From Alkanindiges sp. WGS2144 (GTDB lineage: Bacteria; Pseudomonadota; Gammaproteobacteria; Pseudomonadales; Moraxellaceae), in NCBI RefSeq assembly GCF_043950625.1, contig NZ_CP171007.1: a DNA stretch of 32,000 nt; one strand, 5' to 3'. Every line of letters begins with the position of its first letter. Position 1 is the first letter of the stretch. A program made the position numbers and the translations under genes. The notes under the pieces were generated by a model that did no database searches, had not been told where the DNA came from, and saw only the letters and a program-made list of their open reading frames with translations. Below are positions 1 to 11,145 of this stretch, in pieces.

Positions 1-3000
1 AAGGGTTAAAAGAAATACGCGCCGCCCTTAAAAAGACGGCTACACGACAAACCTCAGTCGCAGCGTATATCAATGATGGCCGTCGACGCATGAAACTGGT
101 ATGGATTGTTGGTTCGCGTTTTCGCTTTGCAGCCGATGGGGCATTTCCCGTTGGTTTTACCCAAAAAGCGCAAAAACAACAGCTTATTCCTGAATGGGTA
201 CGCTCTGCCAGCTTATTGGCAGGGGCAGCAGGTGATATGCATGATATTGGCAAGGCCTCTGTACATTTTCAGAATAAATTAAACCCTGCCCAGGCTATGC
301 AAAGAATTGCTGATCCGGTACGGCATGAATGGCTGTCGTTAAAGCTGTTGCAACGCCTGCGGGAAAATGGCTGGCAATGGCAACAGGCATGGCAAGGTAT
401 TGAAAAAAATATTGATCATTTTACCTTGAGTAGCCGCGACTTTAATAAAGCCCCTCTCAAACTTCTGAAAACAAGCTTACAGAATGAACTGGAAGCCGTG
501 GATTATCTGGTGGTCACTCATCATAAGCTGCTGGCAGGTGATAGTGACTCACCGACTGCCATGCCCTGCAATGAAAACCATGTCCGTCAACTTATTAAGG
601 CAGGCGATACTAATATTAGCTGTGCGGGAGATTTACCCAATAGTATTTTTAGTAGCCATCAGGCACGAATACAGCGTCTTGCCAGACAAACCGCAACTAT
701 TGAAGAACACGATAAATTATTATTCTGGAAAGCACTGGCCTTTCATGCCCGTGCTGCACTGATTTTTGCTGACCATACCATTTCTGCACTTCGCTATCCC
801 AATACCCAGCAAAAAAAATACAGCTTGTATGCCAATACCAAACCAACCACTGATGGACAACGCATTCAGGATCAACCACTGGAGTGGCATTTACAGCAGG
901 TTGGCGATCGGGCTGCCCGGGTCGCTGTACAAATTTATAGTAATCTGGAACTTACTGGACTTTGTGAACAAACCGTTGAACATATCCAGCGGCCTGCCAG
1001 CAACACACGCTTCTACTGGCAAAACAAGAGCGCACAGCTACTTGAAAAGCATACCCTTAAACACCCAGATATCCCTAGCCTGATTCTCAATATTGCGGCA
1101 ACAGGCAGTGGCAAAACCCGTATGAATTTGCGCACCGCCTGTATTTTACGCCCACACAACCCCCGCATTGCCATTACTTTAAATTTGCGCTCACTGACAC
1201 TACAGACAGGACAGGTACTGCAGCACTCCATGAATCTTGCCGATGATGAGATTGCCACCATCATTGGTGATACCGTCAGCCAGAAACTATTCAATGCCAC
1301 CAATAACCAGCAATCGCAGGATGAGGATGAAAATCCTGTAGAACCCCTATTTGATGCGATTGGACAGGAATCAGAGTTGCCTGACTGGCTCAATAGTTTA
1401 TTTACCCAGCACTATCAGGGTAGACAGGTGACTGATCATCAGGCTAAAACTATCCTGACTGCTCCGTTGCTAGTATCCACCATTGATTACCTGATTGCTG
1501 CGGGTGAACCCAACCAGCAGGGGCATCACATCAAAGCTTTGCTCAGGTTGATGAGCAGCGACCTGATTCTGGATGAAATTGACAGCTACGACCCCAAGGC
1601 CCTGATTGCGGTACTTCGTCTGGTGCAATTGGCTGCCATGTATGGTCGTCATGTCATCTGCTCATCAGCCACCGTGTCCTATACCGTGGCCAGCAAAATT
1701 CATCATGCCTTTCAATCAGGGATTGAAATGCGGTCTGCGCTAATGAGAACACCACAGTCCTACAGGATTGGCATTATCGATAACTTGCTCTCTGCCAAAC
1801 TTTGGATTAACACTGCATGCCAGCCCAGTTTATTTCAAGAAAACTATCAGCAGCACTTACAACAGTTGCAGGAGCAACTTAGCCAGCAGTCTAAACAGGT
1901 CATTTATCGGTTAGCTCAATTACAACCTGTTATTCTGGAAGGCTTAAATCCTGAACAGAAAATCAGGACATGGCAAACAGCCATACTCGAGGCAGTAAAC
2001 CAATTACATCAGCAGCATAGTTGGCAGTTTGGCAACACAAGTAAAAAGATTTCTTTTGGCCTCATCCGGGTAGCAAACATTCGCCCAGCGATTCAACTGG
2101 CGCGTTTTCTAAGTGAGCACCTACCTAACGCCAAAATTGCTTGCTATCACGCTAATGACTGGCTAATTAACAGACACCATAAAGAACAACGGCTGGATTT
2201 TTTACTATCACGGCAGAAAGGCAATCAACACCTGTTGGCAGATGAGGAAATTCAACAAGTGGTTGCTAACTCAATCCACGATGATATTCCTTTTATTGTG
2301 ATTGCCACGCCTGTGGAAGAAGTGGGACGCGACCATGATTTTGACTGGGGAATTATTGATGCGTCCAGTATTCAATCAATCGTGCAAACTGCTGGCCGTA
2401 TTAATCGGCATCGCCTGCAAAAGATCACACAACCAAATATCGCTATTTTGCAGTTTAATTATCGCTACTGTGCCAATAACAAAAGACAGCCTGTGTTTAA
2501 ATGGCCCGGCTATGAAGGGATTAATGGCAACATGTATGCTTCACAGGACATTGCACAACTTTTACCATGGAATGAGCATGGTCAACTGCTAATTAACGCC
2601 ACATTGCGTTTTAACCAGCAGCACTGTTTATTCGCAAAGTATGATGACCAGCAGATACAGGATTTTTGCAAAACCTATTTTGATGACCAGCTTGATGATC
2701 AGGATGCTGATCAACTATTTAGTCATGCTCAGGTTGAGCCTGCAATTTTGACTGAAAATCCTTACCGCGCCACGCCATTACGTGATATGCAGAAAAAACA
2801 GGACTACTACTTTAGGTTTGAAGATGATGAGCCAAAGTTTTATGTAAAGGAGCAGTCGCCTAATCAATATGGCTATATTCAATTACAGGATTTTGATAAG
2901 ATTTTGCCAATCCGGCCTGCTCCTTCTAATGCATGGCTTTACCTGAGCACTGGGCAGATGGCTGAGCGCTGTGTTGAGCTAGGCATCAACCTGGAAGAAG

Positions 3001-3083
3001 GCTGCCATACGTCTCTGGCAGTCTATCAGGATGATACTCCAGACTGGATTTATGATGAGGGATTTGGACTTTATAAAAAATAA
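1..3083 (+). CDS. cas3: Type I-F Cas2/3 fusion (HD nuclease + SF2 helicase), 5'-partial: gene starts upstream of the window
   Basis: The frame of the 90..3083 ORF is open back to nt 3 (GLKEIRAALKKTATRQTSVAAYINDGRRR precedes the Met at 90). From memory, ALKKTATRQTSVAAY...LVWIVGSRFRFAADGAFP matches the end of the Cas2 domain/linker of P. aeruginosa Cas2/3 (LLKKSARRNTAVACH...LLWIVGDASRFNAQGAVP). HD motif GDMHDIGK. Helicase motifs AATGSGKTR (I), LDEID (II), SSAT (III), VEEVGRDHDFDW and QTAGRINRH (VI). The C-terminal end also resembles Cas2/3. Confidence 0.9.
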   Translation, partial: GLKEIRAALKKTATRQTSVAAYINDGRRRMKLVWIVGSRFRFAADGAFPVGFTQKAQKQQLIPEWVRSASLLAGAAGDMHDIGKASVHFQNKLNPAQAMQRIADPVRHEWLSLKLLQRLRENGWQWQQAWQGIEKNIDHFTLSSRDFNKAPLKLLKTSLQNELEAVDYLVVTHHKLLAGDSDSPTAMPCNENHVRQLIKAGDTNISCAGDLPNSIFSSHQARIQRLARQTATIEEHDKLLFWKALAFHARAALIFADHTISALRYPNTQQKKYSLYANTKPTTDGQRIQDQPLEWHLQQVGDRAARVAVQIYSNLELTGLCEQTVEHIQRPASNTRFYWQNKSAQLLEKHTLKHPDIPSLILNIAATGSGKTRMNLRTACILRPHNPRIAITLNLRSLTLQTGQVLQHSMNLADDEIATIIGDTVSQKLFNATNNQQSQDEDENPVEPLFDAIGQESELPDWLNSLFTQHYQGRQVTDHQAKTILTAPLLVSTIDYLIAAGEPNQQGHHIKALLRLMSSDLILDEIDSYDPKALIAVLRLVQLAAMYGRHVICSSATVSYTVASKIHHAFQSGIEMRSALMRTPQSYRIGIIDNLLSAKLWINTACQPSLFQENYQQHLQQLQEQLSQQSKQVIYRLAQLQPVILEGLNPEQKIRTWQTAILEAVNQLHQQHSWQFGNTSKKISFGLIRVANIRPAIQLARFLSEHLPNAKIACYHANDWLINRHHKEQRLDFLLSRQKGNQHLLADEEIQQVVANSIHDDIPFIVIATPVEEVGRDHDFDWGIIDASSIQSIVQTAGRINRHRLQKITQPNIAILQFNYRYCANNKRQPVFKWPGYEGINGNMYASQDIAQLLPWNEHGQLLINATLRFNQQHCLFAKYDDQQIQDFCKTYFDDQLDDQDADQLFSHAQVEPAILTENPYRATPLRDMQKKQDYYFRFEDDEPKFYVKEQSPNQYGYIQLQDFDKILPIRPAPSNAWLYLSTGQMAERCVELGINLEEGCHTSLAVYQDDTPDWIYDEGFGLYKK

Positions 3084-3090
3084 ATACAAC

Positions 3091-3387
3091 TTAGCCCGGT
3101 ACAAGCTCTACATGAATTTTTTTACCCAAAGCAGCCGCAGCACTTGCCAACGTGGTTAATGTCAGGCTGGTATCTTCTTCGTCAAGTAAACGATTTAATG
3201 CAGCACGACTGGTATGCATTTTAGCAGCCATCGCAGTCTTGGTGAGTTGCTGAGCTTTCATTGCCTCAGCAATTTGCCATGCCAATACACGCTTGATGGC
3301 AACCGCAGTAACATCTTCCAGTATCCCTTCTTCCTGCAAGAAATCCTCAAAACTGCTACCAACATGATTAATATTAAAATCGCTCAT
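3091..3387 (-). CDS. XRE-family HTH antitoxin (HigA-like)
   Basis: 98-aa ORF with an HTH segment (LTKTAMAAKMHTSRAALNRLLD). Its ATG overlaps the stop of the upstream toxin ORF by 4 nt (toxin-first, higBA-type order). Assignment is by architecture plus motif only. Confidence 0.7.
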   Translation of the reverse strand: MSDFNINHVGSSFEDFLQEEGILEDVTAVAIKRVLAWQIAEAMKAQQLTKTAMAAKMHTSRAALNRLLDEEDTSLTLTTLASAAAALGKKIHVELVPG

Positions 3388-3731
3388 AATGTTCTCCGAG
3401 ACTGTTTCAGCCGCTGTTTTGCCAGTTCCAAATCAGATTTTGGAGTAGCTTGAGATTTCTTAACAAAGCCATGTAGTAATAACAGGGTATTACCACTCAC
3501 TGTAAAAAAGATCCGGGCAATTCCTGATAGAATATGAATACGTATTTCCCATAGGTCAGTATCCATCTTGCGTACTAAAGGCATGCCCAGAGGCCAGCCA
3601 ATCTGCACGGTACGAATATCCTCCCCAATACTTTTTTTATCAGTAGGTGAAAAATCTTTTAACCATTGCCTGACTGGTTCTACCCCACTATCGGTCTTAA
3701 AAAAAAGTACAGTTAATGGAGGAATTGGCAT
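3384..3731 (-). CDS. RelE/ParE-superfamily toxin, gp49-like/HigB-like
   Basis: The ORF track gives 3384..3779. The conserved part starts at MPIPPLTVLFFKTDSGVEPVRQWLK (Met17, nt 3731). The C-terminal LLLLHGFVKKSQATPKSDLELAKQRLK is typical of gp49-like/HigB toxins as I recall the family. The start is uncertain (3779, 3740 or 3731). Confidence 0.65.
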   Translation of the reverse strand: MPIPPLTVLFFKTDSGVEPVRQWLKDFSPTDKKSIGEDIRTVQIGWPLGMPLVRKMDTDLWEIRIHILSGIARIFFTVSGNTLLLLHGFVKKSQATPKSDLELAKQRLKQSRRTL

Positions 3732-3831
3732 AACAAGCATCTCATAAACTTGTCTATTAGTGTACCATATTTGATACACTTAACAATATCGTACAACGGT
3801 AATATTGAGACATTAGACCTAATGAGTAGAA

Positions 3832-5960
3832 AGTTTTATCTATCTATACGATGGTGAACGAGGTAGCCGATAACTCGTTTACGCCAATCCGCTTCTAAAC
3901 TATCTGCACGATAGTGAACATATTGGTTAAGGCTTCAACGTCCCGCTTGCCCTTCTAAACTATCTGCACGATAGTGAACCATCACTACCACTAAAGCTCT
4001 GCTGGCGCTCTCTTCTAAACTATCTGCACGATAGTGAACAAGGTGGAATTTTAGGTTCTTTGCGAGTTTGACTTCTAAACTATCTGCACGATAGTGAACA
4101 TCGCGGTACATGGCATTGATGAATGATTGCACTTCTAAACTATCTGCACGATAGTGAACAAGACAGCCCGCAAATGTAGCCGCGACACCAACTTCTAAAC
4201 TATCTGCACGATAGTGAACTCCAGCAGGTTTTTTAAGTCTTGATATTCAGACTTCTAAACTATCTGCACGATAGTGAACTTTACAGCGTGGTGTGATGCT
4301 TTAGCGTTTTTCTTCTAAACTATCTGCACGATAGTGAACAAGACGGAGCAAAGGGCGCTACCGGCGCTCAACTTCTAAACTATCTGCACGATAGTGAACC
4401 GTCCCACATGCCTGTATACTGGCGCGACTCACTTCTAAACTATCTGCACGATAGTGAACTTATACCGATGATACTTTAGCTGATATTGGTTCTTCTAAAC
4501 TATCTGCACGATAGTGAACGAAATGCACATTTTCGCGCCCTACGCTTCACACTTCTAAACTATCTGCACGATAGTGAACAGCGTTGTCAGGCAACTACAG
4601 GTGCGGCACTGGCTTCTAAACTATCTGCACGATAGTGAACCTCTAAAGATAAATCTGATAAGTCTTTATCTGCTTCTAAACTATCTGCACGATAGTGAAC
4701 TATGGGATGTATTTAGAATCTAATTTGTCCAGCTTCTAAACTATCTGCACGATAGTGAACATTGGTCAGTACCAGCTAAGGGTGAGCCTATCCTTCTAAA
4801 CTATCTGCACGATAGTGAACATGCTAAAGAAAACCAGCCTAGCCAATGGCAACTTCTAAACTATCTGCACGATAGTGAACATCCATATCCATAATGTCAT
4901 CAAGATTTTCTTCTTCTAAACTATCTGCACGATAGTGAACCAAATTTAGCTGTGACCGCAGCCGCTGGTGCTCTTCTAAACTATCTGCACGATAGTGAAC
5001 AAAATTAGAAATGCTAGAACGGTTACGATCACCTTCTAAACTATCTGCACGATAGTGAACTTTTTTGCTATTTCTGCGCCTATAGCATCATACTTCTAAA
5101 CTATCTGCACGATAGTGAACTGCATCATGATTAATGGCAATATCAACAGGACCTTCTAAACTATCTGCACGATAGTGAACTGCCCGGCTCAATGCGTACC
5201 GACATCTGCCACCTTCTAAACTATCTGCACGATAGTGAACCAGCAGGCCAGCCATCCCGATTATAAGGTGCTCTTCTAAACTATCTGCACGATAGTGAAC
5301 TTGTCTAAATCGGATTTGAGTTGTTTGATGTACTTCTAAACTATCTGCACGATAGTGAACAACCCCGCTCCACTTCAGAATCAGATACAAATCTTCTAAA
5401 CTATCTGCACGATAGTGAACATTGCTGCGGCACCAGTACATCAAGGCCAATTCTTCTAAACTATCTGCACGATAGTGAACAGGTGAAACGTGCGTTTGCA
5501 GCGATTGTGGGACTTCTAAACTATCTGCACGATAGTGAACTGATCTTTCCGGTGAACTGGTATCCGTAGACTCTTCTAAACTATCTGCACGATAGTGAAC
5601 AATGCTTTGAGATACTTGGAAAACTGGTGCTTCTTCTAAACTATCTGCACGATAGTGAACGCCTTCATCATTTTGTGATGGCTCTTGCGAATCTTCTAAA
5701 CTATCTGCACGATAGTGAACTTAGTAGTTGGTGTAATGCTCTTGCCTTCATACTTCTAAACTATCTGCACGATAGTGAACAATAATAGAACGCTGGTCGG
5801 AGAAACCATCTTCTTCTAAACTATCTGCACGATAGTGAACAGACAATTTAAAAATGAATGCCTATGATCTCACTTCTAAACTATCTGCACGATAGTGAAC
5901 TTAGTTTGTTGATCACTGGAGAAAGATCAACACTTCTAAACTATCTGCACGATAGTGAAC
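3832..5960 (-). CRISPR. Type I-F CRISPR array, 36 repeats / 35 spacers, transcribed on the minus strand
   Basis: 28-bp repeat: plus strand CTTCTAAACTATCTGCACGATAGTGAAC, minus strand GTTCACTATCGTGCAGATAGTTTAGAAG (I-F family shape: GTTCAC, 5-bp stem/5-nt loop, TTAGAA tail). There are 35 identical copies, starting every 60 bp at 3892-4552 and 4613-5933. One decayed terminal copy at 3832-3859 has 8 mismatches. Of the 35 unique spacers, 34 are 32 nt and one is 33 nt (4580-4612). The decayed repeat is at the low-coordinate end and the AT-rich leader at the high-coordinate end. Confidence 0.97.
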
Positions 5961-7095: not shown

Positions 7096-7704
7096 CTAAA
7101 AATACGGCAATGCAAATGGCTGCGAAGCACGTGCCAGACCATAGCCATCTGGCATCCCTGCTCCAGCATCTTCCGCCTGTTGAATATCAACAATGACTGT
7201 AAACTGCTGACCCGTAGACTGACTTTGCACCCGTAAAAAAGGCATTGCTTTCGCCTGCTCTAAACGCCGATCGCGCAACGGGGCTTTATCATAGCTGAAG
7301 TTACGCTCTGTCTTTAGAGTAGGAATACGAAAACGGCGGTAGCTTTTCCATGCCGTGTGCATGGGAACCTTACTGACCAAACCAAGCTGGCAATAATCCC
7401 GCACTTTCCAGTGCGCTTGCAATGTAGTCAGCAGCTGCTGTAACACCTGTTCCTGCTCAGCAAAAATCCGCAGCACATCATAGACCGCAAACCTGCGTTG
7501 ACTAGACGGCTTGTCTCTTTGTTGCTGTAAGCCGATCACATGATCTGTTTTGGAGGACGTCAGTGCTAATGCAAACAGCATTGGCATCTGACGAAAGCAG
7601 CCATGCAATACCGTAAAAATCTGGTTGCGGATATGCTCCAGTTGCAGATCGGTATTATCCCCGGTGGGCTGGATCATGACATCCAGATAAAAATTAGCCT
7701 GCAT
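7096..7704 (-). CDS. cas6f: Cas6f (Csy4) crRNA endoribonuclease
   Basis: FLRVQSQSTGQQFTVIV and the C-terminal GYGLARASQPFALPYF match recalled Csy4 motifs (FVTLRSQSTGQHFRLFI; CYGLSKGGFVPWF). The likely start is MQANFYLDV at 7704 (AGGATAA SD upstream, 16 nt after the cas7f stop) rather than the track start at 7749, which would overlap cas7f. Confidence 0.85.
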   Translation of the reverse strand: MQANFYLDVMIQPTGDNTDLQLEHIRNQIFTVLHGCFRQMPMLFALALTSSKTDHVIGLQQQRDKPSSQRRFAVYDVLRIFAEQEQVLQQLLTTLQAHWKVRDYCQLGLVSKVPMHTAWKSYRRFRIPTLKTERNFSYDKAPLRDRRLEQAKAMPFLRVQSQSTGQQFTVIVDIQQAEDAGAGMPDGYGLARASQPFALPYF

Positions 7705-10862: not shown

Positions 10863-10905
10863 GGATAATGCCTTTTTTACATGATTTTATCGTCCAGCGG
10901 AAAAT

Positions 10906-10943: not shown

Positions 10944-10977
10944 TTAAAGCATCAAAGTTATCTTATAGCTATTAAGG
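10944..10977 (-). promoter_or_regulatory. Predicted Cascade binding site: CC PAM + partial protospacer for the upstream psi-spacer
   Basis: Minus strand: CC (10977-10976) followed by TTAATAGCTATAAGATAACTTT. Nt 1-10 are identical to the psi-spacer, 19/22 are identical over nt 1-22, and there is essentially no match over nt 23-32. The site ends 10 bp upstream of the candidate -35. Confidence 0.5.
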
Positions 10978-10986
10978 TTATAATTT

Positions 10987-11065
10987 AAAAACCACCTAAG
11001 CGGTGGCAGACTTAAAAAGTTAGCTATTAGCTATTAACTTCTAAACCATTTGCACAATGGTGAAT
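10987..11065 (-). ncRNA. Degenerate mini-CRISPR (psi-repeat + psi-spacer + terminator hairpin); candidate cas-regulating crRNA-like RNA (CreR/CreA-like)
   Basis: 11065->11038 reads ATTCACCATTGTGCAAATGGTTTAGAAG, 23/28 identical to the array repeat. Loop and handle are intact, and 4 of the 5 changes form two compensatory stem pairs. It is followed by a 32-nt spacer-like segment, then CCACC-GCTTA-GGTGG + TTTTT. It is co-directional with the cas operon. Expression has not been shown. Confidence 0.55.
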
Positions 11066-11145
11066 GATTTTCGTCAGTAAGCAGTCTAACACCCGTGCCA
11101 AAGATTAAAAGCACAATTTAAATCTCAGCACTGTAAAACAGGCAT

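Follow-up and report, generated by a model that had tools for sequence, protein, structure and literature searches.

The CRISPR-Cas locus and its mini-array

The 32,000-nt stretch of Alkanindiges sp. WGS2144 (Moraxellaceae) analysed here, which we call the window, carries a type I-F1 locus of CRISPR repeats and cas genes, with a Cas8f whose sequence is that of ACF3NA_07095 at NCBI. The minus strand reads, in order, RNase P RNA, tRNA-Met, a mini-array element, cas8f-cas5f-cas7f-cas6f-cas1 and the CRISPR array. This mini-array is the subject of the present analysis. It consists of a leader, an upstream repeat-like unit (psiR1), a short spacer (psi-spacer) and a degenerate second repeat (psiR2), and is followed by a site matching the psi-spacer and by the predicted promoter of the cas8f operon.

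PsiR1 (11065–11038, minus strand; ATTCACCATTGTGCAAATGGTTTAGAAG) contains a 5-bp stem, a GTGCA loop and an intact 8-nt 5' handle (TTTAGAAG). It is identical to the array repeat (GTTCACTATCGTGCAGATAGTTTAGAAG) at 23 of 28 positions, including 8/8 of the handle and 5/5 of the loop, and its stem substitutions form two compensatory pairs (7-19 and 10-16), all of which reproduces the original prediction made for this DNA, as did a check of its other sequence statements. Apart from the array itself, the 32-kb window has no further 28-mer that matches the repeat at 18 or more of the 28 positions, and 100 shuffles gave a best score of 19/28. The predicted fold of psiR1 is that of the array repeat. It retains the hairpin recognised by Cas6 and the 5' handle of the cognate repeat, as is characteristic of CreA and CreR elements. 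The decayed terminal repeat of the array (3832–3859, minus strand; GTTCACCATCGTATAGATAGATAAAACT), which holds C7 (CCATC...GATAG), had been offered as a control with an uncompensated mutation. The sequence is as stated, but since the array repeats of relatives read CCATC/GATGG at the stem, C7 is probably the ancestral base, and it would be the active repeats that changed pair 7-19 to T-A.

A scan for a 5-bp stem, a 5-nt loop and a handle-like tail flagged psiR1 and, independently, a CCACC-GCTTA-GGTGG hairpin with repeat geometry as psiR2 (11011–10984, minus strand; GTCTGCCACCGCTTAGGTGGTTTTTAAA, or GTCTG-CCACC-GCTTA-GGTGG-TTTTTAAA). Because the hairpin has repeat geometry, the psi-spacer (11037–11012, minus strand; TTAATAGCTAATAGCTAACTTTTTAA) is 26 nt long, and the 32-nt spacer running into a plain terminator that was proposed earlier is rejected. 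The hairpin and its run of five T residues (predicted fold -10 kcal/mol) do score as an intrinsic terminator, as had been claimed, but not as a plain one; psiR2 probably does both jobs, those of a repeat-type hairpin and of a terminator. Such a degenerate second repeat or terminator, defining the 3' end, is another feature of CreA and CreR elements, and it is conserved in the closest relative, the Moraxellaceae metagenome-assembled genome PMG_235 (loci L004/L001; Cas8f 82% identical to that of the window). The psi-spacer, which is internally repetitive (TAATAGC twice), falls inside the 23–27 nt published for bacterial I-F CreA and CreR spacers and equals in length that of Pseudomonas aeruginosa CreA2, which has a 26-nt spacer and matures to 54 nt. 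Shorter guides are published to assemble with fewer Csy3 subunits.

The leader (11110–11066, minus strand) holds an extended -10-like motif (TGTTAGACT) at 11091–11083, with a predicted transcription start site about 10 nt upstream of psiR1. Between the tRNA-Met terminator (11173–11146, minus strand) and psiR1 no promoter rose above the scan threshold. The earlier statement that the element has no convincing sigma70 promoter therefore holds for the scan, but the conserved leader with its -10-like motif qualifies it. Over about 45 nt the leader is approximately 90% conserved with that of L004, including the motif (TGTTAGACT/TGTTAAACT), despite a different upstream gene context, the element of L004 being preceded by mobile-element genes and no tRNA. 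Because the leader is conserved in this different context and holds the motif, it appears more likely that the mini-array has its own promoter there than that it depends upon read-through from tRNA-Met. Read-through, suggested earlier as a possible source, is rejected as the main source of RNA in view of the strength of the terminator (9-bp stem, seven T residues) and the presence of the same leader in L004 without an upstream tRNA.

The target site and the predicted cas8f promoter

The seed of the psi-spacer (TTAATAGCTA) recurs 62 nt downstream of it behind CC. The target (10977–10950, minus strand) consists of the protospacer-adjacent motif (PAM) CC at 10977–10976 and a protospacer at 10975–10950 (CC followed by TTAATAGCTATAAGATAACTTT). 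Nucleotides 1–10, 13–14 and 16–22 pair, positions 11, 12 and 15 are mismatched, and there is no pairing past nucleotide 22, so that identity is 10/10 over the seed, 19/22 over the paired region and 21/32 overall. The PAM, the perfect seed and the 19/22 identity are those originally reported. This is the only CC-flanked site in the window with a PAM-proximal run of more than five. The chance of finding CC plus 10 nt in the downstream 125 nt is about 1.3e-5 with local composition (the earlier estimate, for unbiased composition, was roughly 1e-5), and only 1 of 500 shuffled psi-spacers did as well within 1.5 kb on either side. PAM-proximal partial complementarity to a nearby site flanked by the PAM of the subtype (CC for I-F) is again what is seen in CreA and CreR systems.

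A sigma70-like scan of the cas strand between the element and cas8f gave a single match, TTGACT-17-TATTCT (10934–10906, minus strand), the promoter candidate already named for cas8f. Its -35 hexamer begins 15 nt after the 26-nt protospacer. The target lies 113 nt upstream of the cas8f ATG, and these 113 nt hold no open reading frame (ORF), hairpin or terminator. A second promoter, inside the target (TTAAAT-17-TAAGAT, 7/12 by eye), was rejected, being below the scan threshold and not conserved in L004.

Related loci in the Moraxellaceae

Using Cas8f homologues we collected 24 related loci, cited here by L numbers. The same scan located a psiR1-psi-spacer-psiR2 unit upstream of cas8f in 14 of these, and each of the 14 psi-spacers has a nearby CC-flanked match starting at the PAM, with runs of 7–16 nt (counted ignoring positions 6, 12 and 18). 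Shuffled spacers did as well in 0–1 of 500 trials for 13 loci and in 17 of 500 for L007. Mismatches cluster at positions 6, 12 and 18 across the 14 loci. Since the spacer sequences differ widely, yet each matches its own locus, it is the pairing and not the sequence that is conserved among the mini-arrays. Every stem is paired (100%) in a set of 28 repeats and psi-repeats, and 4/5 pairs show double changes, but this covariation count is inflated by the hairpin filter through which the psi-repeats were gathered.

The comparison with PMG_235 is the most informative. The psiR1 stem, loop and handle are identical in the window and L004 (23/23, or 33/33 with the psiR2 stems), versus only about 77% identity in the adjacent cas8f DNA. 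The two psi-spacers are homologous; their seeds differ at positions 2, 7 and 8, and so do their targets (seed/target TTAATAGCTA/TTAATAGCTA in the window, TCAATGATTA/TCAATAATTA in L004). Spacer and target covary between related loci, as in other CreA and CreR systems. Alignment of orthologous loci had been proposed as a check on the original prediction, and this co-change, the intact stems and the 14 self-matching loci bear it out.

Proposed origin from a CrePA cassette

In L004 a 114-amino acid KilAC/ANT-domain gene lies between the target and cas8f, and the homologues of the CRISPR-repressed toxin CreP given by Shu et al. (bioRxiv 10.1101/2024.01.05.574328) include that of PMG_235. In Acinetobacter baylyi ADP1 (L017), small-RNA sequencing, reporters and compensatory mutations demonstrated that CreA acts at a site directly before the -35 to repress PcreP (bioRxiv 10.1101/2024.01.05.574328). 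A KilAC/creP gene is present in L004, L014, L017, L018 and L019 and is absent from the window, where none follows the target and where, the target being 113 nt from the cas8f ATG, there is no room for one.

Nucleotides 10990–10863 of the window align with the target-to-PcreP region of L004 with a score of 67, compared with 38.9 +/- 5.8 for shuffles, and TTGACT-17-TATTCT is in register, hexamer for hexamer, with the TTGACA-17-TATGCT located upstream of creP. Beyond this stretch, homology to L004 resumes only some 25 nt short of the cas8f ATG. Missing from the window are creP, its terminator and the native, palindrome-bearing region upstream of cas8f. L023 (Cas8f 77% identical) has the native upstream region and no cassette, which supports an order of events in which insertion came first and deletion second. 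In the simplest account, a CrePA cassette, comprising the CreA guide and the KilAC-domain toxin CreP, would have been inserted, after which a deletion of about 0.6 kb in the Alkanindiges lineage would have removed creP, the terminator and the native region. The deletion would thereby have fused the CreA-repressed toxin promoter to cas8f, turning a toxin antidote into a cas autorepressor. We give an even chance to the full version of this history, in which the locus is a snapshot of a CRISPR-repressed toxin-antitoxin turning into a pure cas autoregulator through a single deletion of about 0.6 kb at a short AAAT..TGTAA / AAAT..TATAA similarity, with the effector-cas1 operon driven only by a promoter repressed by Csy-CreA.

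Proposed function and alternatives

Taken together, the observations make it probable, though well short of certain, that the degenerate mini-array makes a guide which places the Csy complex beside the cas8f promoter, and that this former CreA now acts as a cas autorepressor (CreR). A reading of the CreR/CreA type was put forward originally, and the 14 like loci, the co-change with L004 and the validated ADP1 homologue support it. As expected of a CreR, no toxin gene stands in the 113 nt between the target and the cas genes, although a very small RNA toxin is conceivable there. A CreR target would lie within or beside the promoter of the effector cas genes; here the sole promoter predicted, with a likewise predicted transcription start site, is conserved with PcreP of L004 and begins 15 nt beyond the end of the target.

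Since CreA-type homologues are published to be processed, we infer by analogy that Cas6f would convert the transcript into a mature crRNA-like RNA (crRNA, CRISPR RNA). The mini-array would be transcribed from its own leader promoter; Cas6f would cut at the foot of the psiR1 hairpin to yield the 5' handle UUUAGAAG, and the psiR2 hairpin would set the 3' end, both as a Cas6f-type stem-loop and as a terminator. The resulting guide RNA of about 54 nt (8 + 26 + 20) is predicted to assemble a Csy complex with five, not six, Cas7f subunits, for which the array would supply competing canonical crRNAs. The complex would recognise the CC PAM and pair with 19 of the first 22 target nucleotides; the lack of pairing past nucleotide 22 would permit binding without recruitment of Cas2/3, and repression would then be Csy-dependent without DNA cleavage, as in the homologous systems. 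Covering about -76 to -51 of the TTGACT-17-TATTCT promoter, the bound complex would lower transcription of cas8f-cas5f-cas7f-cas6f-cas1. Because repression would require free Csy proteins loaded with the guide, the operon should be de-repressed in the presence of anti-CRISPRs or when the proteins are titrated by other crRNAs.

Several points weigh against this proposal. Judged by consensus the leader promoter is weak, and the generic two-hexamer scan did not pick it up. PsiR2 agrees with the array repeat at only 15/28 positions, binding of Cas6f to it is hypothetical, and mature CreA of ADP1 lacked the 3' hairpin (bioRxiv 10.1101/2024.01.05.574328). With 15 nt between it and the -35, the target does not cover the core promoter, and any repression may thus be modest; the corresponding gap in L004 is 19 nt, presumed to be enough to restrain a toxin. 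The mismatches at 11 and 15 partly coincide with positions published as critical in a CreA of Acinetobacter, position 15 lying in a segment of that kind. The cassette turned up in a single close homologue, and the covariation could predate the loss of the toxin, so that it is no proof of selection for cas autoregulation after the deletion.

A rival view is that the element is an inert relic, the remnant of a CrePA cassette after a recent deletion of the toxin, which either is not made or binds without meaningful effect on cas8f, and which will decay. The deletion scenario itself, the weak leader promoter, the position of the target upstream of the -35, and the sporadic occurrence of mini-arrays among close relatives (L023 has none, and Shmakov et al. 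(PMC10120712) also noted patchy presence) would all fit. We nevertheless consider it unlikely, although it is the most serious competitor. No decay is visible in the stem, loop and handle of psiR1, in the stems of psiR2, or in the PAM and the 10-nt match of the seed, all of which are intact; the sole recognisable promoter of the effector operon adjoins the target, so that a Csy-guide complex bound there is positioned to matter; and with 35 perfect repeats and intact cas genes, the CRISPR system looks active.

Considerably less probable is that the guide is still a CreA antitoxin which represses a tiny RNA toxin in the 113 nt before cas8f, or a target elsewhere in the genome, any cas regulation being incidental. 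Twelve of the 14 related loci do have a small gene between the target and cas8f, and CreT toxins of type I-F can be very small RNAs with minimal ORFs. The window, however, has no hairpin, terminator or Shine-Dalgarno-led mini-ORF between the predicted transcription start site (~10899) and the ribosome binding site of cas8f, no homologue of CreP or of the small proteins of 72 and about 60 amino acids described below, and no second CC-flanked seed match within 32 kb. A start-stop mini-ORF, ATG-TAA, does occur at 10882–10877 (minus strand), 15 nt upstream of the cas8f ATG. It is situated at the inferred deletion junction, the aligned position of L004 reads CTG-TAA, and we regard it as incidental.

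Finally, that the element is no guide at all, the similar 22-mers being direct-repeat protein sites or a local duplication and psiR1 a stray decayed repeat beside an ordinary terminator, draws some support from the AT-rich DNA, in which psi-spacer and target form direct repeats spaced by 62 nt, and from the repetitive psi-spacer, but is hardly credible, for it leaves unexplained the CC flank at the downstream copy only, the intact handle abutting the upstream copy and the 6/12/18 mismatch bias across 14 loci with unrelated spacers, and guide function has been shown experimentally for the homologues.

Comparison with known systems

The original prediction described such guides as reported mainly for types I-B, I-E and V-A. 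This is outdated, as I-F1 mini-arrays and I-F CreA have already been published; the mini-array is not a first I-F instance and offers no new mechanism. Its nearest counterpart is the I-F CrePA module that Shu et al. (bioRxiv 10.1101/2024.01.05.574328) describe from A. baylyi ADP1 and from 50 loci homologous to it, PMG_235 being one. With the PMG_235 copy it shares alignable psiR1, psiR2, leader and promoter, and with CrePA in general a CC PAM, PAM-proximal partial pairing, a target placed before the regulated promoter's -35 and a mini-array upstream of csy1/cas8f. Unlike CrePA, the window lacks creP, its regulated promoter reads straight into cas8f, and its target is 15 nt from the -35 and not adjacent to it.

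Liu et al. (2023, bioRxiv 10.1101/2023.03.10.532045) validated CreR RNAs from degenerate mini-CRISPRs in types I-B, I-E and V-A and named candidates in I-F. As in these, a toxin-free mini-array with a strongly degenerated psiR2 lies upstream of the effector genes and partially matches a PAM-flanked site adjoining the cas promoter, and a negative feedback sensing Cas availability is predicted. In contrast to the validated CreR RNAs, the present element, a predicted CreR, is of subtype I-F and has an apparent origin from a toxin-controlling CreA.

I-F1 mini-arrays between cas3 and cas8 were validated with reporters in P. aeruginosa YL84 and predicted in Acinetobacter and Moraxella osloensis (Shmakov et al. 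2023, PMC10120712). The well conserved upstream repeat and degraded downstream repeat, the shortened spacer, the CC PAM, the mismatches at every sixth position and the target upstream of cas8 are common to these and to the window, which differs in having tRNA-Met, and not cas3, upstream. Most of the Moraxellaceae relatives examined have a small gene between the target and cas8f, and the window is among the few with cas8f directly downstream.

CreTA modules are known from Acinetobacter sp. WCHA45 and from P. aeruginosa I-F (Wang et al. 2023, PMC10097628; bioRxiv 10.64898/2026.06.02.729485). The resemblance here would be in the Csy-dependent crRNA-like guide, with a psi-spacer of 20–26 nt, and in the repression of a promoter by partial pairing. 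CreTA guides, however, control small RNA toxins (divergent in WCHA45), none of which is recognisable in the window. A literature search for Alkanindiges CRISPR returned nothing relevant, and the locus is undescribed. Without a toxin and with its captured promoter, it represents a neat evolutionary variation on a known kind.

Other features of the locus and of related loci

The cas8f operon, which would be the regulated unit, spans 10862–6057 on the minus strand and gave Pfam matches to Csy1-4 and Cas1: cas8f (10862–9672), cas5f (9675–8827), cas7f (8791–7721), cas6f (7749–7096) and cas1 (7010–6057). It is followed by the CRISPR array (5960–3832, minus strand), with 35 perfect 28-nt repeats and the one decayed terminal repeat. 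A cas2/3-like gene (90–3083, plus strand) is convergent with the array and specifies a 997-amino acid protein with Cas3 C-terminal and DEAD helicase domains, in which Pfam detected no Cas2 domain. The cas2/3 promoter had been placed just left of the window; the gene was found inside it, with 89 nt of upstream sequence visible. Assignment to type I-F1 is based upon the Pfam identification of Csy1-4, Cas1 and a Cas3-type helicase and upon the 28-nt repeats with a TTAGAA-type handle. The layout is unusual for I-F1 in that cas1 follows cas6f and the Cas3-like gene is convergent beyond the array. A Gp49/HigB-like ORF (3384–3779, minus strand) sits between the Cas3-like gene and the array. At its other end the locus borders two housekeeping RNA genes, tRNA-Met (11256–11180, minus strand) and, directly upstream of it, the RNase P RNA gene (11717–11354, minus strand; Rfam RF00010, 336 bits).

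Among the related loci, the small genes between target and cas8f include two families besides creP. L010, L012, L015 and L016 (7592–7844) have a 72-amino acid Cys-rich protein (MSKFIINKN...CYYCCNACHTS), and L005 (7628–7816), L009 (3895–4071) and L022 (4788–4979) a protein of about 60 amino acids that contains the motif QLNLFE. Pfam matched neither family, and both are candidates for further CRISPR-repressed genes. In the metagenomic locus L002 (2699–2790 and 2806–3000; Cas8f 64% identical), the mini-array has a psi-spacer of only 14 nt by hairpin geometry, matching CC followed by ATAGTGTATTCAAT, and the interval from target to cas8f contains a strong hairpin (AGCAGGATTAAAG...CTTTAATCCTGCT) that may be a small RNA toxin. 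L019 (M. osloensis FLMOS1) has a three-repeat mini-array with two identical psi-spacers at 7207–7354. In L004 (PMG_235; 7283), the main CreA target is preceded, 39 nt upstream, by another and weaker site flanked by CC (TCAATAACTAATTTC). No mini-array was present on the short contigs of L023 and L024 (Cas8f 65%), and none was recognisable in L003 (Cas8f 61%).

The palindrome CGACA-N5-TGTCG (15 bp), which the window lacks, is conserved about 100–190 nt upstream of cas8f in most of the Acinetobacter and Moraxellaceae I-F relatives (L001-L010, L014, L017 and L022), with a variant in L023. It resembles an operator at which some regulator of the csy operon would bind.

Metagenome and viral contigs were also scanned. 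An exact search of both for the psiR1 core (ACCATTGTGCAAATGGTTTAGAAG) gave no matches. The leader 17-mer had 54 matches in metagenomes, none with a repeat handle within 45 nt. Handle plus seed had 69 matches in viral contigs, two of which have a hairpin-like context with 4 of 5 pairs, and both look like chance. These scans revealed no phage mimic (Cracr) and no further orthologue.

Significance

The mini-array provides a cleanly interpretable I-F example of a class validated mainly in I-B, I-E and V-A. If the autorepressor reading is correct, it would be a toxin-free I-F CreR in the Moraxellaceae with a 26-nt guide, and all Csy and Cas1 expression in WGS2144 would hang on a promoter monitored by the very complex it encodes, a negative feedback that would raise Cas output when anti-CRISPRs or decoy RNAs disable that complex. 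The window and PMG_235 constitute a matched natural pair, without and with the toxin, for studying the interconversion of guides that guard toxins and guides that regulate cas genes, and, should the proposed history hold, the locus would be direct evidence for an evolutionary route from CreA to CreR.

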